Shown here one piece after another: positions 3,880-32,759 of a stretch of 64,000 nucleotides of DNA. The stretch comes from a virus: the IMG/VR virus record IMGVR_UViG_3300045988_177034. One strand, written 5' to 3'. The translations under genes were made by a program, and so were the position numbers. Within the stretch, counting starts at the first letter, position 1; every line of letters begins with the position of its first letter. The notes beneath the pieces were generated by a model. The model was not told where the DNA came from and did no database searches. It saw only the letters and a list, made by a program, of their open reading frames with translations.

Positions 3880-4665
3880 TTAGCTGTTTTCTTCGATGCA
3901 CAATTTGCTGCTACGAATGTTTTCCAACCATTTTTCATCCATAACATTGCCAATACGATACTTCCTCTGGGATTCATAGGACCAGTCACAACCGACGACA
4001 ACATCACCGATGGCATTCAGATACAGTTCTCCATCAGTGATATTGATTCCGGCTTCATTTCTCGGTTTACAATCTCTCTCATATTCAATCACAAGTTCCG
4101 AAACTATAGGTTCTCTCTTTAGAATCTGATTTGCGTTGATAGTTTTGGCACGACCCTCGTTAATGAGATATTGCTTGCGAAAATCCGTTACTTTATCATT
4201 ACGATTATATCTCAAACCGCTAAGAATACTCGCACTTTCGCGGGGAATTTCTTCATGAAAATCATCGCTGCTGATACAAAGACCACACGAATAGTCATCC
4301 TTGTCATCGCAATAATTCCACCATTCGAGGCTCGCCAAAGCGAGTTCTACCATCTTATCGACGGCTTTCCCGTTGGTTACCATATAAAAACTCCCAACGG
4401 AAATGTTTCGCTCTCTTACGGCGTTCAAAGTATAGCGGATAGCAGGAATATTCAAAGAAATTTCTCCACCCGTAAAGGTCAAGGAACTGATGTATCCTGC
4501 ATTAGCAAAACTGTCAAGAAACGCATCGATATATCTTTCCTGAATATCGACCGCCTCCGCATCACCACGCAAACAATGCGCACAGCACATATTACAGCGA
4601 CGAGTAACCTCAATTACCACATCACACGCGCTCGAAATATACATTCTATTTACTCCTTTCATCAA
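3880..4665 (-). CDS. radical SAM enzyme (MoaA/viperin-like core, 261 aa)
   Basis: CX3CX2C motif (RRCNMCCAHC) near the N-terminus, GGE motif (TFTGGEIS), TNG motif, ISSDDFHEE (resembles ISxDSxxEE of the MoaA/viperin clade), extra Cys C119/C127/C130/C233; start codon overlaps the upstream stop (ATGA). Confidence 0.8.
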   Translation of the reverse strand: MMKGVNRMYISSACDVVIEVTRRCNMCCAHCLRGDAEAVDIQERYIDAFLDSFANAGYISSLTFTGGEISLNIPAIRYTLNAVRERNISVGSFYMVTNGKAVDKMVELALASLEWWNYCDDKDDYSCGLCISSDDFHEEIPRESASILSGLRYNRNDKVTDFRKQYLINEGRAKTINANQILKREPIVSELVIEYERDCKPRNEAGINITDGELYLNAIGDVVVGCDWSYESQRKYRIGNVMDEKWLENIRSSKLCIEENS

Positions 4666-5641: not shown

Positions 5642-6439
5642 TTACAGCAAACTCATCTCTGCACGATATGCATCGGCATCGTAGCCCCAGATATTACAAG
5701 CAAAATCGATTGCTGCGTTACCTTCGCTGGGATAACCGTCGTCAACAAAATCTCCTTTGCAAAGCGCATACCAGCCACAATTACTTCCGATATCCTCATC
5801 CGCATATTTTACACGAATATTGGCGTGTGGAAATTTACGGCTCAGTTCGACAATGGCGCATGTAGGCGTATTCCAAGGAGTCTTAAAGTTAACAGTGATT
5901 TCCGTATCATTTGTTCTACGGATACTCACATCGAAAACATCCCACTTTACGCCCCAGTTTGCGACACGCCAATAATACCACGAGGCATATCCATAGCTTA
6001 CGGCGTTTTCCAATGTACGTTCCGCCACAGCGTCGAACTCCTCGATATTATAGGGGATACGTTTCAGGTTGATGAGTTTGCTATCTTTCACATGTTCCAG
6101 TTTGGAGCGAGCTTCCGCAGCTTCTTTGCAAACACCAACCATATCTGATGCAGTAAGTTTTTCCTTCCTGTGCAGGAGAAAAGTTTCTCTGCAAATAGCC
6201 TTTCTTACGTTTTCCGGATACTTCTCCGGGTCAATTCCGTATTTATTTACGGCCGCCCATGCGAGCATCCTGTCACATGGCGATACGATTTGCAGTGATT
6301 CCGGCATAGGAACAACAGACTGAAGCGAAAAATCTTTTTCGCCATCATCGTCTTTTCCCTTGACACGATTCAGAAAATCCTCCAACTCTGCCTGAGAATT
6401 GAAAGAAACGGACATGATATTCATGATATTGTTTGCCAT
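5642..6439 (-). CDS. Api92/YubB-like protein (DUF1281 ferredoxin-like domain), 265 aa
   Basis: AAGGAG ribosome-binding site 7 nt upstream; motif WRVANWGVKWDV resembles the NWGTKWN signature of DUF1281 proteins found in plasmid leading regions; assignment tentative. Confidence 0.5.
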   Translation of the reverse strand: MANNIMNIMSVSFNSQAELEDFLNRVKGKDDDGEKDFSLQSVVPMPESLQIVSPCDRMLAWAAVNKYGIDPEKYPENVRKAICRETFLLHRKEKLTASDMVGVCKEAAEARSKLEHVKDSKLINLKRIPYNIEEFDAVAERTLENAVSYGYASWYYWRVANWGVKWDVFDVSIRRTNDTEITVNFKTPWNTPTCAIVELSRKFPHANIRVKYADEDIGSNCGWYALCKGDFVDDGYPSEGNAAIDFACNIWGYDADAYRAEMSLL

Positions 6440-6772: not shown

Positions 6773-7114
6773 TCAAATGATAACGGCTTCCAATGCTACA
6801 GCACCAGACCCAATTTCATCAGCAACTTTTGATGCTGTTGCAAAATCGTTGTGAGCATACGGTCCTTGCGAATCCATATAAGTGACTCGGTAGGCATAAT
6901 CTGGCTCAAATGATGGGCTTACAATAATGTAAATACCAGTGTTTAACTGATATGTGATGGCATCAGCTTTTTCGATTTGAGCGATGATTTCCTTTCGACG
7001 CTTAGCTTCCGACTGCAAGTATTCAGATGCTGCTTCTTTAATAGGGTCACAAAGGAAAATATCGTCTGGATTACCCGTAATCGGGGGTAGGTCACCCGGA
7101 TAATAGGATATCAT
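6773..7114 (-). CDS. hypothetical protein (113 aa), flanked by the direct repeats
   Basis: AAGGAG ribosome-binding site upstream of ATG 7114. Confidence 0.6.
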   Translation of the reverse strand: MISYYPGDLPPITGNPDDIFLCDPIKEAASEYLQSEAKRRKEIIAQIEKADAITYQLNTGIYIIVSPSFEPDYAYRVTYMDSQGPYAHNDFATASKVADEIGSGAVALEAVII

Positions 7115-7160
7115 GCTTTCATCTCCTTCTTTTTGTCTTCAGCGATGACTTTTTGGAACA

Positions 7161-7326
7161 CGTTAATGTTGGTGGTATCGCTCTTACGCTTTACGGCTCA
7201 ACACATACATATTTTCCAAAATAAGTCCTCCTCAAATGTATCTCTCCCAGAACTTTTCGAATTCCTCGCTCGGCATCTGTGCTTCCGTTTCATCCAACAG
7301 TCTTTCGTAAGAATCACTGGAAACAT
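7161..7326. repeat. direct repeat copy A (166 bp), partner of 6553-6752
   Basis: spans the 3' end of gene 7232..7972, the intergenic ribosome-binding site and a truncated start (MYVLSRKA*) of a copy of the 62-aa gene. Confidence 0.7.
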
Positions 7327-7972
7327 CGGTGCCAATAAAATCAGCAACGGCATCATGACCGCGCTGCATCAAGGCGTCTTTCAGAATCGCCCAACGACAT
7401 TCGTGAATGGCATCATCCAGCGTTTTGTTGCCATCAGGCTGCCAATACTCGCCTGTCTGCTGAATTCTATAAAACTCATCCAGCGCATCATCAACATTGT
7501 TTTCGAGAAGAATATCGTCAATAAAATTGACAGGATAATCCTTGCCGTTGATTGTCACTTCTGCATAACTGAAACAGTCGTCGTCACACGGCATTGCTGC
7601 ACAGGTGACATCGAAAATTTCGTGCGTTTTCTTGTTTACCTTGCAAGGCAACTGGAATGTTGCTCCGGACTCGAAGTAAGAAAAGACAACCGCTTCCTCA
7701 ACATCGTTGTCGGGACATTTCGCAGACTGGATGAATTCCGGCATAGACAGCACATCAATACTCTCTCTTCGGTCGCCCATGGCAGGATAAACCTTCATGA
7801 TTGTATAACCATCATGCTGCAGCTTTCGGATAGCACGGCACAGGTCGAGATGCATTTCATGAAGGCTGATGCCACTACCTCGTCCGTCTTTTTTGGTATA
7901 GATTTCGACAACTACATCTTCAGAGGTGGTCTGAACAACATAATAAGTCTTATCATTACAAATCTTAAACAT
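7232..7972 (-). CDS. hypothetical protein (246 aa; start MFKICNDK)
   Basis: ORF 7232..7993 trimmed to the ATG at 7972, which has a GGGAG ribosome-binding site 9 nt upstream. Confidence 0.6.
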   Translation of the reverse strand: MFKICNDKTYYVVQTTSEDVVVEIYTKKDGRGSGISLHEMHLDLCRAIRKLQHDGYTIMKVYPAMGDRRESIDVLSMPEFIQSAKCPDNDVEEAVVFSYFESGATFQLPCKVNKKTHEIFDVTCAAMPCDDDCFSYAEVTINGKDYPVNFIDDILLENNVDDALDEFYRIQQTGEYWQPDGNKTLDDAIHECRWAILKDALMQRGHDAVADFIGTDVSSDSYERLLDETEAQMPSEEFEKFWERYI

Positions 7973-7993
7973 AGCACTTATCTCCCTTCTCAA

Positions 7994-8191
7994 TCAAACA
8001 AAAGCCAGAAAATCGTTGGCCGGAATCTGTCGCTGGGCATCGTAAGCGGTGCCGTAGACATCATCACCCCAACTGATTTGCACATCCTTCGTCCACAGAG
8101 CAAGCTCAGACATTTTTGCTGCCACGGCTTTTGCGGAGCTGCAGATATACTTCTTGACGGCGTTGTTTTCTTTTACGTTAATTGTAAACAT
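7994..8191 (-). CDS. small hypothetical protein (65 aa; start MFTINVKEN)
   Basis: ORF 7994..8275 trimmed to the ATG at 8191 with a GGAGG ribosome-binding site 8 nt upstream; the larger ORF would overlap the leader hairpin. Confidence 0.45.
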   Translation of the reverse strand: MFTINVKENNAVKKYICSSAKAVAAKMSELALWTKDVQISWGDDVYGTAYDAQRQIPANDFLAFV

Positions 8192-8210
8192 TTCAATTTC
8201 CTCCTTAACA

Positions 8211-8243
8211 CAACAAAAAACAGCCATCTCGATTGAGATGGCT
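8211..8243 (-). terminator. intrinsic-terminator-like hairpin (CAGCCATCTC-aatc-GAGATGGCTG plus T6) in the 5' leader
   Basis: minus-strand read gtgCAGCCATCTCaatcGAGATGGCTGttttttgttgtgtt, followed by the AAGGAGG ribosome-binding site and ATG 8191. Confidence 0.5.
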
Positions 8244-8308
8244 GCACGAACAGATTTTGAACTAAAACAAGTCAAGGAATTGATACTTTGATTTATCTTA
8301 GTTCCTTA

Positions 8309-8336
8309 ATTATATCTACTTTGCAGCAATTGACAA
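8309..8336 (-). promoter_or_regulatory. family-1 conserved promoter: TTGTCA - 16 nt - TATAAT
   Basis: minus-strand read ctatcTTGTCAattgctgcaaagtagaTATAATtaaggaactAAGATAAAT. Confidence 0.65.
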
Positions 8337-10350: not shown

Positions 10351-10950
10351 TTATTCTTTGTTATCCGAAGGAATTTTCGGAGACTTCTTCTTCTCAACGA
10401 AAGCATCAATCGTTCGGCCGAAACGATTAAGAAGCATTGCGCCAAGATAAAGAATGATGCCGCTAATCATGATACCAACATCAAGCGTCTCAAATCCTGC
10501 GAAACTCTTGCAATAAATAGAACTGACTGCGAGAGCGCCAAGCGTTGGCAGAGAAGCAATCGTTACCGTGAGTGCCGCATACACAACACTATTCAGAACA
10601 GTACCAATGCTTGCAATGATGCCGCGCTTTTTAAAAGTGCGCTGCTTATCGTAGGACATCTGATAAGCCCCGATAAGACTTGGTTCACGAATAATGTCGC
10701 GCAGATGCAGCAGGCACCACGCCAAAACAGCACACCCGATGCCGCAGCCGACCTTATAGGCACTCATGCGAGAACCCCACAGGTCATTTGCGTTGGCGGG
10801 AACGACGAACGCCAGAATGTTGAACAGGACGGCAAACAAGACGAACATTGCCATGTGGGGATTCTTGGCAGTGTTGCGAGCCTCGTTCTTTGCCTTACTT
10901 GTGATTTCCTCGGTCTGATTGTGAATTTTCACATTGAGAATCTTTTCCAT
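10351..10950 (-). CDS. integral membrane protein (199 aa, about 4 predicted transmembrane helices)
   Basis: AAAGGAAAGG ribosome-binding site; long hydrophobic segments; no motif recognised. Confidence 0.6.
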   Translation of the reverse strand: MEKILNVKIHNQTEEITSKAKNEARNTAKNPHMAMFVLFAVLFNILAFVVPANANDLWGSRMSAYKVGCGIGCAVLAWCLLHLRDIIREPSLIGAYQMSYDKQRTFKKRGIIASIGTVLNSVVYAALTVTIASLPTLGALAVSSIYCKSFAGFETLDVGIMISGIILYLGAMLLNRFGRTIDAFVEKKKSPKIPSDNKE

Positions 10951-11071
10951 TTTTACCTTTCCTTTCTTGCGAACGATTTAGTTATAAATCGTTTTTTAGT
11001 CGTGATAGTGATGCGAAATACCGTATATGATTGCGAGCGCTAATGCAATGTAGATATAAAGATATCCCTTT

Positions 11072-11182
11072 TCAATCAGCCTCAATGATTCCGTTCCAGT
11101 CGAGAGCGGCGATGAAGCTGACTCCCATGGTGAAAATCCACAAAAACGCGGCAACGAGAACGATACTGTCAAGCACATTCAT
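11072..11182 (-). CDS. small hydrophobic peptide (36 aa, MNVLDSIVLVAAFLWIFTMGVSFIAALDWNGIIEAD)
   Basis: GGAGG ribosome-binding site 8 nt upstream of ATG 11182; I prefer this to the overlapping 60-aa ORF 10996..11178, which has no ribosome-binding site. Confidence 0.35.
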   Translation of the reverse strand: MNVLDSIVLVAAFLWIFTMGVSFIAALDWNGIIEAD

Positions 11183-11233
11183 AGTAAATACCTCCATAGT
11201 TTAAAGAGTTGTAAATATCGGACATCTATATAA

Positions 11234-11271
11234 ACAGCAAAAAGCCGCCAATGGGACAATCCACTGGCGGC
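11234..11271 (-). terminator. intrinsic-terminator-like hairpin (GCCGCCAGTGG-attgtc-CCATTGGCGGC plus T5); also the likely terminator of the sec-sortase operon
   Basis: lies downstream of sortase gene and promoter 11326-11353 and upstream of the small peptide gene. Confidence 0.55.
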
Positions 11272-11325
11272 TCAGTTGCCGATTGCAATAATACAGTTAA
11301 ATCATTTGATTTATGTTATGTCTTA

Positions 11326-11353
11326 ATTATATTAACTTCGCAGCATAATGCAA
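11326..11353 (-). promoter_or_regulatory. family-1 conserved promoter: TTGCAT - 16 nt - TATAAT
   Basis: minus-strand read acacTTGCATtatgctgcgaagttaaTATAATtaagacataacATAAAT. Confidence 0.6.
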
Positions 11354-11360
11354 GTGTTTT

Positions 11361-12332
11361 TTAGAAAATCTGGTCAAGCTTTGCGCATACAATAAAACGA
11401 GTATCGTAATTATCACTGCCGGAACAGGTGGACAAAATCAAGACCTTATCATTCAATCCAACTTCTGTGGCGTACTGATTGTAAGAGTAAGCTTTCATAC
11501 TTGCAATCTCTGTCAGGAAATACGAATCATCCGGATTCGCAATGGTATAACTTGGGTCAATAGGATAATCGGCAACAGCAAAGATTTTCCATCGTGTCTG
11601 CTGTTCACCCAAGGTAAGATAAATATACCGATGTTCCTTTGCAAAGTTGACATCGCGAAAGTATTTCAAAACACTGAATTTCTTGTGCATACTATTTCCG
11701 TTGCTATGTCCAAAAATAACAGTTACTCTGTACATATCGTCAACATTGCTGACATTCCATTCGGAGGGAACAAAATAAGCGCCCCAGATGCTTTCCCTAT
11801 CGAACTCATTGTGAGTCAGGTAATAATCATCGTCTGTGGGATGCTGCAAAATGGGCTCATCTGTAACATCAACGCCGGGAACGGTTAAGTAACCAACGGT
11901 GTTTTTGGAATACGCTGGCTTTGGTGTCGGTTCCGGTTCTGAATCACTCTCACTTGAATTAGAAGACGGGATAAGAATCGAGGGAGTAGAAACAGGTTCT
12001 TCTACATCATCGGAGATGTTTCCTGTCTCATATGCAGGGATATGATAGTAATCATACGCTTTCCATCCAATATAGCCAATCATGGCAATAAGAACGATGC
12101 AGATTACGACCAACAAAACTGTCCAGATGGAAAATCGCCGTTTCTCTTTGTCCTCTGACGCGTCCATCGCATCCATCGATTCATTGTCATCCTCGTCATG
12201 ACTTGCCTTTTGATGAGGGAAGTTTTCACCAGTTCCATCATCCTCATCATTTGGAATGTAATTGTACGCACCAAGTTCCTGCTCGAAATGTTCTTCTTCA
12301 GGCAGCGGTGGAATAATAGGTGTTTTTGCCAT
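11361..12332 (-). CDS. sortase-family transpeptidase (class B-like), 323 aa, with N-terminal membrane anchor
   Basis: catalytic motifs VIFGHS (His), LILSTCS (TLxTC-type Cys) and downstream Arg (YDTRFIV); one N-terminal transmembrane helix after an acidic cytoplasmic stretch; AAGGTGA ribosome-binding site; 12 nt after the upstream gene. Confidence 0.8.
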   Translation of the reverse strand: MAKTPIIPPLPEEEHFEQELGAYNYIPNDEDDGTGENFPHQKASHDEDDNESMDAMDASEDKEKRRFSIWTVLLVVICIVLIAMIGYIGWKAYDYYHIPAYETGNISDDVEEPVSTPSILIPSSNSSESDSEPEPTPKPAYSKNTVGYLTVPGVDVTDEPILQHPTDDDYYLTHNEFDRESIWGAYFVPSEWNVSNVDDMYRVTVIFGHSNGNSMHKKFSVLKYFRDVNFAKEHRYIYLTLGEQQTRWKIFAVADYPIDPSYTIANPDDSYFLTEIASMKAYSYNQYATEVGLNDKVLILSTCSGSDNYDTRFIVCAKLDQIF

Positions 12333-12343
12333 AATACATCACC

Positions 12344-13507
12344 TTATTCAGCTGCGGCAGACCGCTCGTACACATCAATGCAGTAGTTGCCCATAATCTT
12401 GTTGTACATGCACTCCTGTGCCAAAGGACCTGCCCCATAGGTATCAACGGCGTTATCGTAGTTACTGCCAATATAAGCTTTCACTTCATCGACAGACGGT
12501 TTATAGTCCTGTTCCTCTGCCAGATACTGCGCAACAAGGCTCAGTAAAACATTTTCTTCCGTCTGACTACGAAGACTTTCTGAATACTCCTCCGAGGTCT
12601 TATAATTGCTGTATGTCTGAACGAATGTCTCCAAGTCCATATTGTAGGCAGTTGCTTCGTTTTCGACATACTTCAAGTTGGTTTCAAGACTCAGGTTGAC
12701 AAGGTCTGTCGTATCCTTTTTGAGTTTTACATTATCAATGAAATACTGTTCAATCTCATTCTGAATCTTATTCATCCGAAGATTCTCTTCAACATATTCA
12801 CGAAGCAGAGCTACTGTGGTTACAGCAGTGCCGTCTTGCAGCTTGTAGCCACTCATGATACCGGCGACATCAGCATCTGTCATGCTATATTGAGAAATTT
12901 TATTAAGCGTTACATGGAAAACAGCTTCCTTGTTGGCGAGTTCGATAGTCTGCTCTCCTGTAGTTCTATCTGTTGTACTGCTATATCCATCAGGGAATGT
13001 TACCGTAACATCAAACGAATCCCCCGTGTTATGCCCGACGATTTGCTCTTCAAATCCGTCAATAAAGGTATTGGAACCGAGTTCCAAATCGTAGTCTTCT
13101 GTTGCTCCACCGGTAAAAGCAACACCATCAACCGTACCCTCATAGTCAATGTTCACAACATCGCCTTCCTGTGCGGCGCGGTCTGTTACCTCTGTCGTCA
13201 GCTTGTAATTGGACTGAAAATAATCCAACTCGCTTTGAATCTCCTCGTCTGTAACGGCGTATACATCTTTGCTGACCGTATACTTCTTATAATCCTTGGG
13301 CATCTTTATGTATTTGGACGCAGTCACATCACGAAAATACCCATCATCATCAAGACCGAGGTCATACTCAACAGCGGAAGCTGTTTCGGAGGTGGCTGTT
13401 TCCGCAGTCTCAGATGCACTTGTATCGGCCATATCTTTACTGCACGCGGTCAATGCAATACATGCAGCACTGATGACTGCCAAAATCACTTTTCCATTTT
13501 TTTTCAT
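12344..13507 (-). CDS. lipoprotein with trigger-factor/FKBP-type peptidyl-prolyl isomerase domain (387 aa)
   Basis: lipoprotein signal peptide MKKNGKVILAVISAACIALTAC; segment DVVNIDYEGTVDGVAFTGGATEDYDLELGSNTFIDGFEEQIVG matches the trigger-factor prolyl isomerase consensus; AAGGAG ribosome-binding site. Confidence 0.7.
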   Translation of the reverse strand: MKKNGKVILAVISAACIALTACSKDMADTSASETAETATSETASAVEYDLGLDDDGYFRDVTASKYIKMPKDYKKYTVSKDVYAVTDEEIQSELDYFQSNYKLTTEVTDRAAQEGDVVNIDYEGTVDGVAFTGGATEDYDLELGSNTFIDGFEEQIVGHNTGDSFDVTVTFPDGYSSTTDRTTGEQTIELANKEAVFHVTLNKISQYSMTDADVAGIMSGYKLQDGTAVTTVALLREYVEENLRMNKIQNEIEQYFIDNVKLKKDTTDLVNLSLETNLKYVENEATAYNMDLETFVQTYSNYKTSEEYSESLRSQTEENVLLSLVAQYLAEEQDYKPSVDEVKAYIGSNYDNAVDTYGAGPLAQECMYNKIMGNYCIDVYERSAAAE

Positions 13508-13565
13508 GAAAGAAACTCCTTTATAAAAAGACCCCGGCAGACAGGTTGCCTACCGGGGCAGTATT

Positions 13566-13817
13566 TTAAACGAACAGGAACGGAACGTGAAGTAACAGAG
13601 CGTATGCCGCATCCATAATGCCAATAATAACGGCGGATACAGCACTCACAGCAAGAACTGCTCCGGTTCGACGGAGCGTGTTGTGCATACTCGGCCAAGT
13701 CACATTTTTGGGTGCAACCAAATTGTGCAGCTTCTTAGGCGTGCTCTTGACGAAAGAAGGAATTGCCTTCACGAAATTCGCAATAGCCGTTCCTACCTTT
13801 TTCAGTTTATCTTTCAT
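13566..13817 (-). CDS. secE: SecE-like protein (83 aa; start MKDKLKK)
   Basis: segment KNVTWPSMHNTLRRTGAVLAVSAVSAVIIGIMDAAY fits the SecE core (K-V-x-WP ... transmembrane helix ... D); GGAGG ribosome-binding site; ATGA overlap with the upstream gene. Confidence 0.5.
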   Translation of the reverse strand: MKDKLKKVGTAIANFVKAIPSFVKSTPKKLHNLVAPKNVTWPSMHNTLRRTGAVLAVSAVSAVIIGIMDAAYALLLHVPFLFV

Positions 13818-14068
13818 GCCGCACCTCCTACTCCGGTTACTACGAACATGATGATTGCGATAACAAGCAGAATAGCTGTACATACAGCAACCAGTTTATT
13901 TGCGGACGTTTTCGTGCTGTCTTTAGCACTCGAGCGCATTGTATCACTGATTCCGGTGATAACACTAAGACTGTTCTTGTCAGCCTTATCCATGGAAAGC
14001 GTAACCGCACAAACCAGAACAGAAACCAGCAGAATCAAGATGCACAGAATGATTTCATAAATTGCCAT
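13814..14068 (-). CDS. secG: SecG-like small membrane protein (84 aa; two transmembrane helices flanking a polar loop)
   Basis: topology and size match SecG/Asp5-like proteins; loop LSVITGISD loosely resembles the SecG glycine loop; assigned mainly because it sits between SecY and SecE. Confidence 0.4.
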   Translation of the reverse strand: MAIYEIILCILILLVSVLVCAVTLSMDKADKNSLSVITGISDTMRSSAKDSTKTSANKLVAVCTAILLVIAIIMFVVTGVGGAA

Positions 14069-14083
14069 TGTGTTGCCCTCCCG

Positions 14084-15424
14084 TCAATTCAAGAAACCCT
14101 TGTGATGGCGAACCACCAAATGGCTGTTAAGAGAATCGATAACTTCAAGCGTAACACCTGTGACAATCAACAGACTGGTACCGCCAAAGTGCATGTTCAG
14201 ACCTGTAACCGCAGTTGCCAAGATAGGCACACATGCAATAACCGAAAGAACAAATGCTCCCGAACCGGCGAGAGAATGGCAAGCATTGCGCAGATAATCA
14301 CTGGTAGCTTTGCCTGCTCGAATACCGGGGATACTGCCGCCGTTCTTGCGCAGGTTGTTTGCCATTTCGATGGGGTCGAATGTGATGTCGATGTAGAATA
14401 AGTTGAATGCGAAAATCAGGGCTACATACGCAACATCATAAATCCAATTCCGCGAATTCCAAGATGCCAGCGCCATATACAGGCTGGGGTGCTTGTTGTA
14501 ATCGAGGAACATCGTCACGAGAGACGGCATACTGCAAATGGTGGACGAGAAAATAATAGGCATAACACCCGACATAATCAGTTTGATGGGGATATAACTG
14601 GACTGACCAGTGGATGCTTTGTTCCCTACATTTTTACCGGCATACTGAACAGGAACGCGGCGCTCTGCATCGCTTGCGAAAACGACATAGAAGGTGGCCG
14701 CCAAAACAAAGAGGATGACGCCGGGAATCATCAGATAATACCACCATCCATTTTCTTTGCCCATTGCAATAGAGTTCTGGAACAACGAGATGACAGCATC
14801 CCATCTGGAAATGATACCGGTAAAGATGATAAGGGAAATACCGTTGCCAATACCTTTTTCGTCAATCAGCCATCCAAGCCAGATGACGATTTGAGAACCA
14901 GCAGTCAGAATGGCAATAACAGTAATGGCTTCCACGACCTGCGAAATGCCGGAAGTGTATTTCATCGCACCGTAGTTCTTCATAATAAAGAAGTACCCGA
15001 TAGCTGTTACGACCGCCAAACCACAACCAACATACTGCGTGATTTTATTGATTTGCTTCTGCCCGCCGATGTCCTTGCTGATTTCTTCCAGTTTCGGAAT
15101 CGCAACAGTCAAAAGCTGGATGATGATGCTTGCGTTGATGTATGCAGATACGCCAATCGCAAATACCGCACACTGAGAAAGTGCGCCACCGGAAACCAGA
15201 TTGTAATAATCCAGTACAGAGGTGCTTCCGAACATAGTCTGAAGCGCAGCGGTGTTTACGAACGGAATCGTAATACCGCAACCCAGACGATAAATCAGAA
15301 GACAAAGGATGGTGAAGAGAATCTTGTTGCGAACATCATCCACCATCAGCTTCTGAAAGATGGTGCTGTTCGAATAAGACTTTTTGAGTTTCGGCTTTTT
15401 CGCCGGATTTTTAATGTTGTCCAA
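14084..15424 (-). CDS. secY: SecY-family translocon subunit, accessory or second copy (446 aa; TTG start)
   Basis: strong SecY motifs: GGALSQ, GIGNGISLIIF, RVPVQYAGK, YIPIKL, IPGIRAGK, GGTSLLIVTGVTLEVIDSLNSHLVVRHHKGF; not in a ribosomal-protein operon context; AAGGAG ribosome-binding site 6 nt before TTG. Confidence 0.9.
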   Translation of the reverse strand: MDNIKNPAKKPKLKKSYSNSTIFQKLMVDDVRNKILFTILCLLIYRLGCGITIPFVNTAALQTMFGSTSVLDYYNLVSGGALSQCAVFAIGVSAYINASIIIQLLTVAIPKLEEISKDIGGQKQINKITQYVGCGLAVVTAIGYFFIMKNYGAMKYTSGISQVVEAITVIAILTAGSQIVIWLGWLIDEKGIGNGISLIIFTGIISRWDAVISLFQNSIAMGKENGWWYYLMIPGVILFVLAATFYVVFASDAERRVPVQYAGKNVGNKASTGQSSYIPIKLIMSGVMPIIFSSTICSMPSLVTMFLDYNKHPSLYMALASWNSRNWIYDVAYVALIFAFNLFYIDITFDPIEMANNLRKNGGSIPGIRAGKATSDYLRNACHSLAGSGAFVLSVIACVPILATAVTGLNMHFGGTSLLIVTGVTLEVIDSLNSHLVVRHHKGFLN

Positions 15425-15448
15425 TGCTTACTCCTTCCGCGACTGAGA

Positions 15449-15724
15449 TTATCGAGCAAAGAAAGCAACGATGATTCGCATCAGAAAGGCTACAACGGCC
15501 AACTTCGTTGCAAGCCACATGAACCAATCGAGTTTGTCGATACCTTCGTCGAATACATTTGTTGCGGCAGCATCTTTTTTGTTGCTGTCGCAATCCCCGT
15601 CAACATGGTTTTTCTTGATTTTGTTGCGATTAAGCACAAACAAAGTTCGAAACAAAGCCCATGTTGCAATACAGAATCCGTATACGATTAGAAGCTCAAT
15701 ACAGAAACTGTGCAAAGACGACAT
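15449..15724 (-). CDS. small membrane protein (91 aa, 2 transmembrane helices)
   Basis: ORF track; start overlaps the stop of the upstream gene (TAATG). Confidence 0.5.
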   Translation of the reverse strand: MSSLHSFCIELLIVYGFCIATWALFRTLFVLNRNKIKKNHVDGDCDSNKKDAAATNVFDEGIDKLDWFMWLATKLAVVAFLMRIIVAFFAR

Positions 15725-16401
15725 TAAGCGGATGCGCCGTTGGCGTCAGGAGTCGTATTGGAGGCGGTCTCGGCAGCGGCCTCTACCGGAGTTTCCGTGA
15801 CAGTCTCTGCGGGAGAAGTAATATCCCCGGTGATTGCGGGGACATTGGCATCTTCTGCGACCGACTCATTGACGGGCGCTTCAATAACCGCATCCTTGAC
15901 TCCATCAGCAGTCACTTTCTTTGCTGCGATTTTTGCGAAGTGCTCATTGCGCTTTTCACGGCAAGCCTTGCAGCGGGTGGGGAGCTTGTAGTCATGGACG
16001 ACATACCAGTACAGCTCGCGGTTGGTAAACTGCAGCTTCTGACCGCAATCTGCGCAGGTGTCTTCCAGACCGATGTTATCCAGCCCGCGTTTCACGAAGT
16101 CGCGATGAATCTTGCGGCATTCCGGGCAGCGGTTCGGCAGAGAATAACCGTGACTCTCGAAGAAATCGCGGTCACGATTGGTGATGTCGAATTCATGACC
16201 GCAGTCAACGCACTTGCGGGTCTCAAACACCTCATTGCTCTTTGCATCAGCTTCCTTGCGAGCTTCATCCTCTGCGCGGCGCTTTGCGAAATCGTCACGC
16301 ATACGACACTCGCGGCACAGCACCTCGCTCTCATTGGCGGTGCTGAACGGCTTGTTGCACTTCTCACAGGTCTTGCGGAACTTCTTTGCTGCATCTTTCA
16401 T
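15724..16401 (-). CDS. protein with three tandem Cys4 zinc-ribbon modules and an acidic tail (225 aa)
   Basis: repeated CxxC-(17-20)-CxxC modules (KCVDCGHEF...CPECRKIHR x3). Confidence 0.6.
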   Translation of the reverse strand: MKDAAKKFRKTCEKCNKPFSTANESEVLCRECRMRDDFAKRRAEDEARKEADAKSNEVFETRKCVDCGHEFDITNRDRDFFESHGYSLPNRCPECRKIHRDFVKRGLDNIGLEDTCADCGQKLQFTNRELYWYVVHDYKLPTRCKACREKRNEHFAKIAAKKVTADGVKDAVIEAPVNESVAEDANVPAITGDITSPAETVTETPVEAAAETASNTTPDANGASA

Positions 16402-16444
16402 GGTTAAGTCTCCTTTATGGTAAAAAAATTAAAATAATGATTGA

Positions 16445-16960
16445 TTAGGCGTTGGGACCAGAAAAAGAATCGATAATTTCATCGATGTGGACGTCCAAGT
16501 CGGACTTGTCATCCTCTTTCTTGGCAGGCTGTTTTACAGGAACAACGATATCAGGCTCATTCTTCTTTTCCTCCGCCGCCTTTTCTTCAACAGGCTTCTC
16601 TGCGGATTCATCCTTGGCCTCAGTGACCTCGGACGCGCTATCGGAATCCACCTTGCCGGATTCATCCTTATCGGCATCAGGATTCGCCTCGGTTGCCTTA
16701 TCAGCATCCTTTTTCGGCTCATCATGCTTGCGCTCTACGCGGATGACATGAACGGCAGCCACGGGCGCATGATGAATATCATCGATGCAATCATCACAAC
16801 CGCAGCACTCATCACAGTCATCACAATCGTCGTCATCATAAAGATAACCGTCATCCTCCAACTCTTTGATGACCTCGTTCTTCACATACTTGGTCGTGAG
16901 TTTCAGGGCAACGGCTGCAACGGTGGCGGCACCAATAACGGACAGAATGTTCTTCTTCAT
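16445..16960 (-). CDS. N-terminally membrane-anchored acidic Cys/Asp-rich protein (171 aa)
   Basis: AGGAG ribosome-binding site; N-terminal transmembrane helix; CDDCDECCGCDDCIDD cluster; first gene after the family-2 promoter at 17008-17036. Confidence 0.6.
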   Translation of the reverse strand: MKKNILSVIGAATVAAVALKLTTKYVKNEVIKELEDDGYLYDDDDCDDCDECCGCDDCIDDIHHAPVAAVHVIRVERKHDEPKKDADKATEANPDADKDESGKVDSDSASEVTEAKDESAEKPVEEKAAEEKKNEPDIVVPVKQPAKKEDDKSDLDVHIDEIIDSFSGPNA

Positions 16961-17007
16961 AAATTTCTCCTTTGACTAAAAAGCAATGTTTCGCTTGGAA
17001 TATTTAT

Positions 17008-17036
17008 ATTATACCACATAAATATAATGTGGTCAA
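17008..17036 (-). promoter_or_regulatory. family-2 conserved promoter: TTGACC - 17 nt ending TGTGG - TATAAT (extended -10, core TGTGGTATAATATA)
   Basis: minus-strand read gtaTTGACCacattatatttatgtggTATAATataaat; likely drives the operon 16960 to 11361 (three unknown genes, then secY, secG, secE, prolyl isomerase, sortase). Confidence 0.65.
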
Positions 17037-17051
17037 TACAAATTGCGAATA

Positions 17052-17079
17052 AAAAAATGCCCCGCCAAAGCAGGGCATG
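17052..17079 (-). terminator. intrinsic terminator (ATGCCCTGC-tttg-GCGGGGCAT plus T7)
   Basis: follows the stop of gene 17098..17751; canonical terminator-then-promoter order here. Confidence 0.65.
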
Positions 17080-17097
17080 TAAAATATCATAAGTGTC

Positions 17098-17751
17098 TTA
17101 TCGAATACCGTATCCCATATCTTGTCGTACAAGTTTTATTTCTGAAGTGCTTTTCAGACTATCGGGGAACATCTCTTTAGCGTAATCCTGATAGCGTTTC
17201 GTAACATACTTTACGCCGAGTTCTTCCGGTTTGATATCTGCTGCGGTCTTTCTGATACGTTGATTCGATGCGCGAGAAGAACATTTCTTGCATAAGCAAA
17301 GCGCGACATTAGAAATGCCTTCATTCCCGCAGACGGCGCATTTTGCATGCGTCTTATCTCTATCCCATTCCTTTATTTCTTTTCCGTTTTCCGGGTCTAT
17401 TACAAGGCGGTTGCGCTTACAGCGGCGCACATAGAACACGCTTTGGCAGCAGGCAACGCATAAGCCTAAATCTTTGCGGTAGTGAGAAGAGAGACCATCT
17501 GTGACTTCACCGCACAAAAGGCATTTATTTTGAGAAACAATATTCTTGTACTTATTAGCCTTGTTCTCTAATAGCTTTTTTATGATTTCACCGGTCTTAT
17601 CTGGTTCAGGAGGATACGCATCCCATCCGTTTACAGGAAAAAAGCTGGAAAAGTCGTTCCATTCATCATCAGAAAACGAACAGCCGACAGGTTTGAGTAT
17701 CTTAGGGAGTTTATTGGACCATACTTTTTCTGCATTAGACTTCTTCGGCAT
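17098..17751 (-). CDS. Cys-rich hypothetical protein (217 aa; start MPKKSNAEK)
   Basis: ORF 17098..17808 trimmed to the ATG at 17751 with a GGAGG ribosome-binding site; several CxxC pairs. Confidence 0.6.
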   Translation of the reverse strand: MPKKSNAEKVWSNKLPKILKPVGCSFSDDEWNDFSSFFPVNGWDAYPPEPDKTGEIIKKLLENKANKYKNIVSQNKCLLCGEVTDGLSSHYRKDLGLCVACCQSVFYVRRCKRNRLVIDPENGKEIKEWDRDKTHAKCAVCGNEGISNVALCLCKKCSSRASNQRIRKTAADIKPEELGVKYVTKRYQDYAKEMFPDSLKSTSEIKLVRQDMGYGIR

Positions 17752-24208: not shown

Positions 24209-25168
24209 TTAAATTTCACCGCTCATGGTCAGCTTTGCACGAGCCATGATTTCATATCCTTTTGCATTTGCGGTTACATCCGTCAAGAAGAAAAGGTTCT
24301 TGGTGTCAATGGCTCGCTCGATGCTTTCGCGCATCATAGCAGAACCACCGCCCATAAAGATGAAATAGGATGTTTTGAAGTCGTCCTTGATTTTTTCGGA
24401 AATCGTACGAATCAATGCTGTTGCATAATTGTCTGCGGTTTCCTTGGCAATTTTCACGGCGTTTTCATCGACCAGCATGTTGTTGTTCCCTGCAAGGATT
24501 GCCTCAGCCATGTAGTCATCGACCGACAAGGAACAATGGACACGCAGCTCGCTCTCGACAGTGCTCAGGAGTTCAATGACTCCACGGTCATAGCTTTCGC
24601 AGAAAGAAAGGTCCGGAGCATAAGTGTTGCCACGACCAGAGAAACGAATCACATCCGTTGTATACCCGCCGATGTCTACAACATAAGAACGGGGATAGCG
24701 CTTGATTTCCTTCTGAATCTCGCCTGCTGCCGTAATAGAAAAGCCCTGAGGATAGACAAAGACATGCTTGACAGTAATCTCGAACGGGATATCTTTGTAC
24801 ATGAAATTGATGAGTTTCCCGTTTTTGCCGAAATACTCATCATACTTCGCTTTCAGGGACATATGCTGCGGGGGCAAGCCCATCGCGAGGCATACATCGT
24901 ATTTGTAGAATTTCTGATTGGGATACTTCTTTATGAGGTTCTTTGCTACGGCAATCAGCGTCAGCAAAAAGTAAGTGTCATCCTTCGTCTTATCCTGCTG
25001 ATAAGGCGTACGGCTGTCATTGAGGGAATAATACTTCCCCATGTAGCACATCGTCTCTCCCTTGATAGCCGGTTCAGTCGTACCATGACGAACAAGACCA
25101 GTGGGAAACGGCTCACAGCCAGGCGTCTTCATTGCCTTGTTTCCGGTATCTACTCCAATAATCTCCAT
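24209..25168 (-). CDS. parM: ParM/StbA-family actin-like segregation ATPase (319 aa; start MEIIGVDTGN)
   Basis: actin-fold phosphate motifs IGVDTGN and VVDIGGYTTDV, adenosine motif FMGGGSAMM; GGAGG ribosome-binding site 7 nt upstream of ATG 25168. Confidence 0.8.
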   Translation of the reverse strand: MEIIGVDTGNKAMKTPGCEPFPTGLVRHGTTEPAIKGETMCYMGKYYSLNDSRTPYQQDKTKDDTYFLLTLIAVAKNLIKKYPNQKFYKYDVCLAMGLPPQHMSLKAKYDEYFGKNGKLINFMYKDIPFEITVKHVFVYPQGFSITAAGEIQKEIKRYPRSYVVDIGGYTTDVIRFSGRGNTYAPDLSFCESYDRGVIELLSTVESELRVHCSLSVDDYMAEAILAGNNNMLVDENAVKIAKETADNYATALIRTISEKIKDDFKTSYFIFMGGGSAMMRESIERAIDTKNLFFLTDVTANAKGYEIMARAKLTMSGEI

Positions 25169-25333
25169 AAAAAATCCTCCGAACGAGTCGCAATATAGTT
25201 GAAAGTACGAATTTTGGGATACTCTGCGTGATAAAATATAAGTGTCTACCAGATAACAATGGGACTCACTGACTGATGTATAGCGGTTGTTAAAACGGAA
25301 AGAACAACTAATATACAACTATCTGTTGTTATC

Positions 25334-29036: not shown

Positions 29037-29555
29037 TTAAATAATCGAGAACTTACGCTTTTTGTTTGTGAATTCAACAATCATAGAAGGACGACGACTG
29101 CCGATAGTCTCTTTCCGATTCTCAGAGTCAATGAACAGATAAGGGTTCGTCATCTTGATTCTGGCAGGTAGAAACTTTACCCTTACTCCCTGCTGTCCAT
29201 AAATGTATCTCTGGAACCAGTCAGAGTCCGTAGAAACGGGTAAAAGCATGACGACCGTGGTATTCTTTTTCCTTGACTCCTCGTACGCCTTGCGCACCCA
29301 CAACTTAAAGGACTTGTGCCCTGTCGGGGGATTGCAAAATACTGTTTCACCTTTCCAGTCCTGCAAGAGACCATCGACACGCTCCGTGTAATATTTCTTG
29401 CATTTGTGATTCTTGTCCGATGCAGCCGCATCCAGAGTGAAACCGTATTCCTTGTTCAGGTCATCGAAAAGCCCCTGAGGCGTCTCCCATTCCTGTTTGT
29501 GAGTATTCTTGACTGCATAAGTCTTATCCGTTGTTTTTGTTTCTACGCTGTTCAT
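29037..29555 (-). CDS. dam: phage-type DNA N6-adenine methyltransferase (Dam family, 172 aa)
   Basis: WETPQGLFDDLNKEYGFTLDAAAS...YYTERVDGLLQDWKGETVFCNPPTG matches the phage Dam family; motif IV reads NPPTG rather than NPPY. Confidence 0.8.
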   Translation of the reverse strand: MNSVETKTTDKTYAVKNTHKQEWETPQGLFDDLNKEYGFTLDAAASDKNHKCKKYYTERVDGLLQDWKGETVFCNPPTGHKSFKLWVRKAYEESRKKNTTVVMLLPVSTDSDWFQRYIYGQQGVRVKFLPARIKMTNPYLFIDSENRKETIGSRRPSMIVEFTNKKRKFSII

Positions 29556-31223: not shown

Positions 31224-32759
31224 TTATTTTATGTCGCTTGCGCTTTCGTCAGGTTCGATGTGTGCATTGTCATCAGCCTTCTCGATTGCAGGCAAACCGT
31301 GAATGTTGATATTGCGGTCGGTCTTAGCATTGATACTGTTCGCGCGAACGATATCGGCCATATCAATACCGGTAGCTTCCTTGACAGTCTGCATGGTCTG
31401 TGCCATCAGCACGGGGACATTCCCAGACACGCCGGACACGCCAGATGCATCGCCGCCGATGATAGATACCTTATCGATTGCGGACAAGGGCTGAGCCACA
31501 TTCTTAGCAATATCAGGCAGGACCTTGATAAGCATTTCGGCGACAGCGGCATCGTTGTACTGCTTGTAAGCCTCCGCCTTTTGCTTCATAGCTTCGGCTT
31601 CAGCAATACCCTTCTGACGGATAGCCTCAGCTTCTGCCTTACCTACAAGGGCAATACCTTCGGCTTCCTGCTGCTTTGCAAATTTCTGAGCCTCAGCAGC
31701 GCGTTCGGCTTCGTATTTTTTTGCTTCTGCTTCTTTTTGGCGTTTATACAATTCGGCATCCGCAGCTTTGCGAACCTCTGCATCCAGTTTTCTCTGCTGA
31801 ACCTCGGCTTCCTGCGCAGCAAGGTCGACCATCTTCTTCTGCTTTGCGATTTCCGCATCGGCTTCGGCTTCCTTGATTTCCTTGGCACGAAGATTTGTCT
31901 GAATCTGTCCTGCAGCATTGGCATCAGCAGCAGCCTTGTCAGCCTCGGCCTTCAATTTGGCCTTTGCCAGCTGCAATTCATTGTTGCGCTGTGCAATAGC
32001 AGTCTGGGCTTCAACTTCCTTTTCATTGGCTGCCATTTCAGCGTCAGCCTTTGCGCGAGCAATATCACGAGCGGCTTCGGCACGAGCAATCTCTGCACGT
32101 TTCTTAACGGCTTCTTCCTGCTCAATACCAATAGCCTCAATGACACCGTGATTGTGACCTTGCGCATCGACGGCGTCTTTTACATCCTGCACATTGAAGG
32201 TTACAACTTCGAGGCCCATCTTTGCAAGGTCAGGACGGGCATTTTCGATTACTGACAGCGCCATTTGTTTACGATTTGTGAGAATCTGGTCAACCGTCAT
32301 ATCCGAAACGATTTCGCGCAGGTTGCCTTGCAAGACATCATTTACTTTGTCATTGATGCCTTTTTCGTCCATGCCAAGGAAGTTCGAAATAGCCGACTGC
32401 TGACGACCCGTAATATATTCCTTGACATCCTTTGCACCAGATGCCTGAACCTCAGAGTCGAGAACAGTAGAATTATCGCTGTATACCTGAATCGTTACAA
32501 CAGAATCAATCCAGAGCGATACACCTTCTTTTGTCTTGACACCCGTCTCAGGGGTTTTGACATCAATTTTCAGAAGACGCATATTCAGCTTATCTGCACG
32601 CTGCAGCACAGGGATGACAAATGTACCCTTTCCGCAAACGACTTTGGGCTTTTTCAAACCAAATCCAGTCACAACGATGGCTGCTGTAGGAGGCGCTTTT
32701 TTGTAGCATGTGAATGCGAACAAAACAAACAATACGACAATAATGATTCCTAAAAACAT
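31224..32759 (-). CDS. flotillin-like SPFH (band-7) domain protein (511 aa)
   Basis: N-terminal transmembrane helix, SPFH-like core, then a long A/E/K-rich coiled coil (EAEAKKYEAERAAEAQKFAKQQEAEG...), as in FloT/YqiK. Confidence 0.8.
   Translation of the reverse strand: MFLGIIIVVLFVLFAFTCYKKAPPTAAIVVTGFGLKKPKVVCGKGTFVIPVLQRADKLNMRLLKIDVKTPETGVKTKEGVSLWIDSVVTIQVYSDNSTVLDSEVQASGAKDVKEYITGRQQSAISNFLGMDEKGINDKVNDVLQGNLREIVSDMTVDQILTNRKQMALSVIENARPDLAKMGLEVVTFNVQDVKDAVDAQGHNHGVIEAIGIEQEEAVKKRAEIARAEAARDIARAKADAEMAANEKEVEAQTAIAQRNNELQLAKAKLKAEADKAAADANAAGQIQTNLRAKEIKEAEADAEIAKQKKMVDLAAQEAEVQQRKLDAEVRKAADAELYKRQKEAEAKKYEAERAAEAQKFAKQQEAEGIALVGKAEAEAIRQKGIAEAEAMKQKAEAYKQYNDAAVAEMLIKVLPDIAKNVAQPLSAIDKVSIIGGDASGVSGVSGNVPVLMAQTMQTVKEATGIDMADIVRANSINAKTDRNINIHGLPAIEKADDNAHIEPDESASDIK

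Follow-up and report, generated by a model that had tools for sequence, protein, structure and literature searches.

SecY is normally single-copy, essential and vertically inherited, and it is unusual to find the core of the universal export channel on a mobile element. One such system has recently been described as the Hodors, two groups of conjugative megaplasmids from the human gut that are 211–389 kb in size (Yuan et al., bioRxiv, February 2026; PMC12934698). Their genomes are circular and encode Rep_3, ParAB and a type IV secretion system, as well as a module of adjacent genes for a hypothetical protein, SecY, SecG, SecE, a trigger factor and a class B sortase (PMC12934698). They also encode giant proteins, 7309–7704 aa and ~2642 aa long, that contain MBG (YGX) domains and bear a signal peptide and a sorting signal, and it was proposed that these giants leave via the plasmid Sec pore, with the trigger factor as their chaperone and sortases positioning them (PMC12934698). 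Here, we analysed a 64,000-nucleotide stretch of the IMG/VR virus record IMGVR_UViG_3300045988_177034 (hereafter the window), in which a SecY–SecG–SecE set, a trigger-factor-like lipoprotein and a sortase are encoded between positions 11361 and 17036.

We read the window as a piece of a Hodor plasmid, and its conserved surface module as the plasmid's own line for the export, folding and anchoring of its giant proteins, with a probability that we would place at roughly 60%. This reading builds on gene identities, sequence motifs, synteny across lineages, purifying selection and an extrachromosomal context, all of which we observed directly. A sequence-only reading of the window, made without database searches, had arrived at a dedicated export, folding and anchoring role and had taken the arrangement to be undescribed. 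The role remains the most economical explanation and is the same as the published proposal, with couplings that we infer from sequence among the channel, foldase, sortase and giants. The claim of novelty does not hold, because the preprint describes the arrangement gene for gene (PMC12934698).

Assignment to the Hodor plasmids

The order of genes on the minus strand across 11361–16401 (hypothetical protein, SecY, SecG, SecE, trigger factor, class B sortase) is the one given in the Hodor text, and the two giant MBG-domain proteins of the window correspond to the Hodor pair in the same way (PMC12934698). Across public assemblies, 3628 listed blocks contain an identical SecY protein. The contigs that we read with this protein came from human-gut samples, were 200–354 kb long and had the same gene order as the window, and their module DNA was 98–99% identical to it. 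IMG/VR contigs bearing the identical SecY reach 389,222 bp, which is the top of the preprint size range, and the longest among the contigs listed with it measured 398,729 bp. These lengths, and a neighbourhood free of ribosomal genes, agree with the mobile-element location that the sequence-only reading had put forward.

The guanine-plus-cytosine (GC) content of the window is 43.8% around the module and 44.5% outside the giant genes, compared with 44.6% reported for Hodor group G2 and 47.1% for group G1 (PMC12934698). Contigs with a 90%-identical SecY (GC content 48.6–49%) fit G1. Judged by GC content only, the window probably belongs to the lower-GC group G2. The two groups are deeply diverged and have few genes in common, which include those for the SecYEG trio, the foldase, the sortase and both giants (PMC12934698). 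In our DNA alignment between them, only secY–secE and part of one giant gene aligned. The only partition-type marker in the window was a ParM/Alp7A-like gene (24209–25318). On every feature that could be tested from the sequence the window is a Hodor member, and nothing essential differs; as a result, the arrangement is already described, the functional idea is the published one and the discovery belongs to the Hodor preprint (PMC12934698).

A nucleotide search of the module against plasmid and phage collections returned no match, and the protein-level matches in these collections were chromosomal SecYs with ≤45% identity. No close relative was found when the GTDB species genomes were scanned with SecY. 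In RefSeq, the identical SecY appears as WP_304220506.1 with the label Phocaeicola plebeius. This label probably reflects a mis-binned or contaminating plasmid contig, and a Gram-negative host is implausible for the SecY module because the module holds a sortase and a lipobox.

Genes for SecY, SecG and SecE

The SecY paralogue (446 aa; 14084–15424, minus strand) starts at a TTG codon with the ribosome-binding site GGAAGGAG 6 nt upstream. It scored 292 bits against PF00344 and 330.2 bits against TIGR00967 (cut-off 253.6; profile positions 1–410 of 414), and it aligns end to end with the solved SecYs of Aquifex, Thermotoga, Geobacillus and Escherichia coli. In a mapping onto E. coli SecY, V/I/I/I/I/I stands at the six positions of the pore ring, the Gly-Gly of the plug is intact, and so is the Arg that corresponds to E. 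coli R357 within the IPGIR(A/P)G loop. Four changes are found across the whole element clade (P84 to A, Q131 to T, E176 to W and T374 to A in E. coli numbering; window residues 94, 140, 185 and 386) at columns that are conserved in 70–96% of other SecYs, and the protein has a basic N-terminal extension of ~17 residues.

The SecE gene (83 aa; 13566–13817, minus strand) overlaps secG by 4 nt. Its product exceeded the cut-offs of both PF00584 (32.2 vs. 22.7 bits) and TIGR00964 (32.2 vs. 27.55 bits), and its VTWP motif is invariant in homologues except in the most distant one, L010 (VTWK). The gene between secY and secE (84 aa; 13814–14068, minus strand) encodes a protein with two hydrophobic segments. 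Aligned with the same-position proteins that stand beside four diverged element SecYs, all five sequences matched PF03840 (best E value 7.7e-7), and a profile of this family found nothing significant among PDB sequences. We therefore accept the protein as SecG-like by its family, position and two hydrophobic segments, and not by its own score.

All of the genes and coordinates named in the sequence-only reading correspond to real open reading frames (ORFs) on the minus strand, and its calls of SecY and SecE were borne out by the profile searches. Its SecG call stands through the syntenic alignment and fails on the protein's own sub-threshold score. The ATGA overlaps that it described are found between secG and secE only, as secY and secG lie 15 nt apart. 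Between the two Hodor groups, the ratio of nonsynonymous to synonymous substitution rates (dN/dS) was 0.045 for SecY, 0.09 for SecE, 0.12 for SecG and 0.16 for the zinc-ribbon gene upstream of them, with synonymous sites near saturation. These low ratios indicate that these genes are kept by selection.

SecYs at 90%, 71%, 59% and 54% identity to that of the window were found in element-like contexts, where genes for a SecG-like protein and SecE always follow. Those at ≤50% identity instead stood at the end of a ribosomal-protein operon (L15-SecY-Adk-Map) in DNA of 57% GC (verified for L011 and L012), and the nearest named housekeeping relatives were Gemmiger and Subdoligranulum. No ribosomal protein, adk or map gene was found near the window secY, which makes it a paralogue or xenologue and not the housekeeping gene. 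By its sequence and context, the SecYEG of the window is a paralogue set on an extrachromosomal element, not the host's own. In a tree of 150 SecYs built by neighbour joining, those of the elements with ≥59% identity formed a clade with 48/100 bootstrap support, those at 52–55% grouped adjacent to it and one 66% sequence (P0084) fell elsewhere. Considering the modest support and the misplaced sequence, we claim only that the element SecYs in this tree appear separate from verified housekeeping copies, a distinction already drawn in the sequence-only reading, and claim neither monophyly nor an origin.

At least four further lineages carry the SecYEG trio at 54–73% SecY identity, two of which were verified by gene context (L008 and L009). 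A PHROGs scan of L008 favoured neither a phage nor a plasmid. L009 (9277–12517; 59% SecY identity) shows ParM synteny, a zinc-ribbon gene and a 212-aa FKBP protein (P0172) that looks like a truncated call, as it matches the 384-aa P0140 to about residue 205. In L010 (1–12296; 54% SecY identity), the trio is accompanied by a sortase, a bactofilin and a giant protein that has SpaA domains and an NLKTG motif.

A trigger-factor-like lipoprotein

The gene that follows secE (12344–13507, minus strand) encodes a trigger-factor-like FKBP prolyl isomerase lipoprotein of 387 aa, in agreement with the sequence-only reading. Its FKBP_C domain scored 60.9 bits and its Trigger_C domain 21.8 bits, the latter just below the cut-off of 22.7, and the Pfam scan gave no match to a rotamase/parvulin domain. 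Against TIGR00115, the protein matched with an E value of 3.8e-50 (170.9 bits vs. a cut-off of 180.2). Because this match is limited to profile positions 108–371, the foldase lacks the ribosome-binding N-domain. Its AlphaFold2 (AF2) model had a predicted local distance difference test score (pLDDT) of 84.9, and the top eight PDB fold matches were all trigger factors (E values 2e-11 to 5e-9), with those of E. coli, Vibrio and Thermotoga the best.

In place of the N-domain, residues 1–22 form a lipoprotein signal with the lipobox LTAC at residues 19–22, followed by a linker (residues 23–45) of low confidence in the AF2 model. The lipobox Cys (position 22) is nearly invariant across 30 aligned homologues, and every homologue inspected bears either a lipobox or an N-terminal membrane anchor. 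Together with the missing N-domain, this anchoring suggests that the foldase should act outside the membrane and not as a ribosome-associated chaperone. It should thus be an extracytoplasmic protein and a functional analogue of PrsA on a trigger-factor scaffold. The word "lipoprotein" does not occur in the main text of the Hodor preprint (PMC12934698).

Anchored proteins of this kind were also found away from the trio. One is chromosomal (L022, 8001–9152) and lies between a malic enzyme gene and pgsA, ~2.5 kb from recX-recA, and another (L023, 10001–12170) is on a separate mobile element, where it adjoins a Pfam-recognisable sortase with no SecY there. A trigger-factor-like FKBP gene adjoins a sortase gene in the window, in L007 of the other Hodor group and in L023; in the window the two are separated by 11 nt (and not 12, as previously counted). 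More tentatively, and at somewhat less than even odds, we suggest jointly that these proteins represent an uncharacterised family of tethered extracytoplasmic trigger factors in gut Clostridia, acting as holdases/foldases beyond the outer end of the Sec channel, and that there is a wider class of mobile elements with their own SecYEG export line for oversized surface proteins.

The sortase and the giant surface proteins

The last gene of the module (11361–12332, minus strand) encodes a class-B-like sortase of 323 aa. Its assignment to the sortases by the sequence-only reading found no echo in Pfam (no match to PF04203 at E values up to 1) and was upheld by TIGR03064 (E value 5.9e-22, sub-threshold in bits; profile positions 9–235 of 235) and by its PDB matches, of which nine out of nine were sortase B (5b23 at 5e-12; Lmo2181, Clostridioides difficile, Staphylococcus aureus). 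The catalytic positions also align, namely His (GHS), Cys (LSTC) and Arg (DTRF). Residues 1–66 form an unusually long and strongly acidic cytoplasmic N-terminus before the membrane helix.

Two giant surface proteins are probable substrates, and both are encoded on the minus strand. The first, of 2647 aa (35988–43931), has a signal peptide (...VTAYA/VES), five MBG_2 domains and a C-terminus composed of NYKTG, a hydrophobic stretch and KKKK. The second exceeds 6542 aa (44360 to >64000), as its frame is open to the end of the window and its 5' end lies beyond it. It contains MBG_2, 22 DUF11 stretches, DUF7507 and CARDB, and ends in NKKTG, a hydrophobic stretch and HKRKK. Sorting-signal-like C-termini were found in the window in these two giants only, and the window encodes one sortase.

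Transcription signals

Just upstream of the module, a terminator-like hairpin (17057–17078, minus strand; 9-bp stem with 6 G-C pairs, then TTTTTTTATT) marks the end of the preceding unit. It is followed by a promoter-like site (17008–17036, minus strand) with TTGACC, a 17-nt spacer and TG-n-TATAAT, which equals 11/12 consensus positions plus an extended -10. This site, recognised as a promoter in the sequence-only reading, is the best consensus match within 10900–17300. An equivalent site is found in the other group upstream of the zinc-ribbon gene (L007, 9066–9094; TTGACT-17-TATAAT). Downstream, an intrinsic-terminator-like hairpin lies between secE and the foldase gene (13531–13559, minus strand; 13-bp G+C-rich stem, then CUUUUUAU; -24.6 kcal/mol, z-score -3.9). 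It directly follows the secE stop, its U-tract reaches the ribosome-binding site of the foldase gene, and an equivalent hairpin occurs in the other group at about L007 11868–11900. A further terminator-like hairpin stands 3' of the sortase gene (11242–11273, minus strand; 13-bp stem with 8 G-C pairs, then TTTGCTGTTT).

The conserved hairpin after secE indicates that the module is not the single operon that the sequence-only reading had assumed. Based on these signals, it is composed of two units, one with the genes for a 171-aa protein, the zinc-ribbon protein, a 91-aa protein, SecY, SecG and SecE, and one with those for the foldase and the sortase. This agrees with the Hodor metatranscriptome, in which the module genes are transcribed and SecY-SecG-SecE and trigger factor-sortase are the two co-transcribed sets (PMC12934698). 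No convincing promoter of its own was found for the foldase-sortase unit, which is probably fed by read-through past the secE hairpin.

Proposed mechanism and alternative explanations

In the line that we propose, the strong promoter at 17036–17008 would drive expression of all parts of a SecY-SecG-SecE channel, together with the zinc-ribbon protein and the two small proteins specific to the group. The hairpin after secE would attenuate transcription, and read-through would yield the lipid-anchored FKBP foldase and the class-B-like sortase. The channel probably works with the host SecA, since no SecA was found on the element, and would export the two giant repeat proteins (about 2650 aa and >7300 aa), which bear Sec signal peptides. 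On the outer face, the foldase would hold the emerging chain and isomerise its prolines while the repeat domains fold, and the sortase would then cut the C-terminal N-x-K-T-G signal and link the giant to the cell wall.

A number of observations weigh against this line. The SecG-like protein alone scored below threshold (PF03840, 18.4 vs. 29.2 bits; TIGR00810, 20.3 vs. 30.85 bits) even with the whole profile covered, and the sortase reached 78.1 bits against a TIGR03064 cut-off of 153.75. The pore, plug and SecA-binding loop of SecY were checked for substrate-specific specialisation, and none was seen, as all are canonical. Some 20 kb lie between the Sec genes and the giants, and the two sets, although on the same strand (as the sequence-only reading had pointed out), form separate transcription units. 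In L008 (10001–11834; 71% SecY identity), the trio stands alone, with no foldase, sortase or giant gene within 10 kb. The orthologous ~2625-aa giant of the other Hodor group has QAPTG instead of N-x-K-T-G, so that the sorting motif is loosely defined and only its T-G is fixed. A class A sortase is also encoded elsewhere on the Hodor plasmid (PMC12934698) and could anchor the giants instead. The absence of SecA covers the 64-kb window and one motif scan of IMG/VR contigs, and the link between channel and giants is one that we infer from sequence and context.

The canonical features of SecY keep alive a different explanation, in which the plasmid SecYEG is a general-purpose translocon that raises the Sec capacity of the host or ensures that diverse hosts offer a compatible channel. 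The clients of the translocon would then be all envelope proteins of the plasmid (type IV secretion parts, lipoproteins and membrane proteins) and not the giants specifically. Such portability would fit the transfer across distant Bacillota that is argued for the Hodors (PMC12934698), and is also in line with a SecY that scores as an ordinary SecY and not as SecY2, with an unaltered pore ring, plug glycines and SecA/ribosome-binding loop, with the separate transcription and 20-kb distance of the giants, and with the lone trio of L008. However, a channel of general use leaves unaccounted for the shared retention of trio, foldase, sortase and both giants by the two diverged groups (PMC12934698), the distant L010, where the trio is once more found with a sortase and a giant SpaA-type protein, and L009, where it is found with an FKBP protein. 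We consider this explanation unlikely, if still worth keeping in mind. The dedicated line for the giants is the reading that we prefer.

The sequence-only reading had compared the locus with an accessory Sec system, in which the SecG- and SecE-like proteins would be Asp4/Asp5 and the motor would be encoded elsewhere on the element. The likeness (one more SecY, a pair of small membrane proteins and large wall-anchored adhesins) proved superficial. The SecY2 models TIGR02920 and NF009082 gave 147.1 and 146.2 bits vs. cut-offs of 249.6 and 353, while the housekeeping model exceeded its own, and it is SecE and SecG models, not Asp families, that the small proteins match. No match to SecA, Asp1-3 or glycosyltransferase families was found among the about 43 window ORFs scanned, as had been reported for SecA2, Asp1-3 and glycosyltransferases. 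In an exact-motif scan of IMG/VR for the SecA Walker-A motif, which is a weak negative, the seven contigs of the element were not among the 60 matches listed, and SecA is not mentioned in the main text of the Hodor preprint (PMC12934698). The substrates are MBG/DUF11 repeat proteins, with no serine-rich-repeat substrate among them. We rejected the SecA2/SecY2 identity on these grounds and regard an accessory Sec system as very improbable and largely refuted.

We give still less credence to a housekeeping SecYEG, from a chromosome or a small cellular genome, that was misread as a mobile element. The RefSeq label and the many SecY matches in plasmid and phage databases that are chromosomal fragments could suggest it, but the neighbours are ParM/Alp7A-like, Dam methylase and family-less genes in place of ribosomal protein, adk and map genes, and the contigs read or listed reach only near 400 kb (354, 389 and 399 kb). 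Verified housekeeping SecYs are ≤50% identical and sit in ribosomal operons, a lipobox and a sortase do not suit a Bacteroidota host, and the genomes in the preprint are circular and encode Rep_3, ParAB and type IV secretion (PMC12934698). It is just as hard to credit that the module is a decaying, non-functional remnant of host-captured genes. The sub-threshold scores of the SecG-like protein and the sortase would be expected of a remnant, but no reading frame is broken, the catalytic and pore residues are preserved, and dN/dS values of 0.045–0.16 at near-saturated synonymous sites refute decay. The identical protein also recurs in thousands of assemblies, and transcripts are reported in the preprint (PMC12934698). 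The chromosomal and pseudogene readings were thus rejected on gene context and dN/dS.

Upstream genes, neighbourhood and strain variation

Among the three genes upstream of secY, the zinc-ribbon gene alone keeps this position elsewhere (in L007 of the other group and in L009, the 59% relative). It encodes a protein of 225 aa (15724–16401, minus strand) with three treble-clef CxxC...CxxC zinc ribbons (zf_Tbcl; PF13451, E value 2.6e-10), and may be the "hyp" of the preprint. The family comprises 20 proteins, all on these elements, and the AF2 model (pLDDT 73) had no PDB fold match with an E value <0.01. A role as a regulator or as a cytoplasmic targeting factor would be a guess in either case. 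The 171-aa protein (16445–16960, minus strand) has a membrane helix at its N-terminus and an acidic tail rich in Cys and Asp. It is specific to the plasmid group of the window, with no family match and no similarity to the same-position gene of the other group. The 91-aa protein (15449–15724, minus strand), with two hydrophobic segments as read by eye, is likewise specific to this group and was also called in L001–L006. L007 lacks its gene, and secY follows the zinc-ribbon gene there after only 85 nt.

The surroundings of the module include genes for a radical SAM protein (3880–4665), an Api92-like (DUF1281_C) protein (5642–6439), the ParM/Alp7A-like actin (24209–25318), a Dam-type N6-adenine methylase (29037–29555) and a flotillin-like protein; most other window ORFs had no family match. 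The flotillin/SPFH (Band 7) gene (31224–32759) has the Sec module on one side and the giant genes on the other. Flotillins organise membrane microdomains, and for this reason the gene may belong to the surface module.

Two sites near the module vary between strains. A 1.4-kb IS605-type TnpB insertion is found in some strains (L005, L006 and L016, at about 6933–8322) immediately upstream of the terminator and promoter of the Sec unit, and the window (about 17102) does not have it. A variable cassette of ~600 bp lies just 3' of the sortase terminator in L001 (14246–14846) and also in L002, L005 and L006, each time with two ~104-aa genes; it is absent from the window (site 11078–11180).

Significance and comparison with known systems

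If the module is truly a private line for proteins of 2,600 and 7,300 residues, it would show how a plasmid can remodel the surface of its host without clogging or needing the host translocon, and would offer a natural system for the study of translocation and folding of very long substrates. Because thousands of human-gut metagenomes contain the element, the surface proteins that it encodes may play a part in colonisation or conjugation. The value of our analysis lies in independent confirmation and in a few mechanistic refinements. Beyond the main text of the preprint, it adds the extracytoplasmic lipoprotein foldase without a ribosome-binding domain, the conserved terminator hairpin after secE, the triple zinc-ribbon gene confined to these elements, the N-x-K-T-G motif and the further lineages with a SecYEG trio. 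In the literature on other element-borne SecYEG sets or extracytoplasmic trigger-factor lipoproteins, we found only the Hodor preprint and PrsA/FKBP analogues.

Compared with housekeeping SecYEG, the window set has the same full-length ten-helix SecY with its hydrophobic pore ring and IPGIR(A/P)G loop, a SecE motif on a single helix and a two-segment SecG-like protein. It differs in being plasmid-borne, as three adjacent genes outside the ribosomal operon, in its ≤50% identity to the nearest verified (Gemmiger-type) SecY, and in the 17-residue basic N-terminal extension and four clade-specific column changes of SecY. The accessory Sec of streptococci and staphylococci (SecA2/SecY2, Asp1-5, GtfA/B) similarly combines a second SecY-type channel with very large wall-anchored adhesins. 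In the window, however, SecY scores as SecY, its partners are SecE and SecG homologues, and the giants are made of MBG_2/DUF11/DUF7507/CARDB repeats in place of serine-rich-repeat glycoproteins.

With regard to anchoring, the class B sortases (SrtB of S. aureus, C. difficile and Clostridium perfringens; Listeria Lmo2181) are the best sequence matches of solved structure and share the aligned His-Cys-Arg triad. Their substrates carry NP(Q/K)T(N/G), and the motifs of the giants are alike in lacking the Leu-Pro of LPXTG. The window sortase is divergent from them (no Pfam match, sub-threshold TIGR03064 score) and has its 66-residue acidic N-terminal extension, the motifs of the giants are proline-less (NYKTG, NKKTG), and nothing ties the enzyme to haem uptake.

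The foldase can be compared with two kinds of protein. With the cytoplasmic trigger factor (Tig) it shares the FKBP peptidyl-prolyl isomerase domain and the C-terminal arm domain, but it is without the N-terminal ribosome-binding domain, carries a lipobox signal peptide and scores below the TIGR00115 cut-off. Given that signal peptide, it could not be expected to serve ribosome-bound nascent chains in the cytoplasm. The PrsA-type foldases of Gram-positives and an FKBP-like lipoprotein of Streptomyces lividans (PMC6833217) are closer in their place of action, being lipid-anchored prolyl isomerases/chaperones on the outer face for Sec substrates after translocation. The window protein departs from PrsA in that its domain is an FKBP within a trigger-factor scaffold, not a parvulin, and in that its gene adjoins a plasmid sortase.

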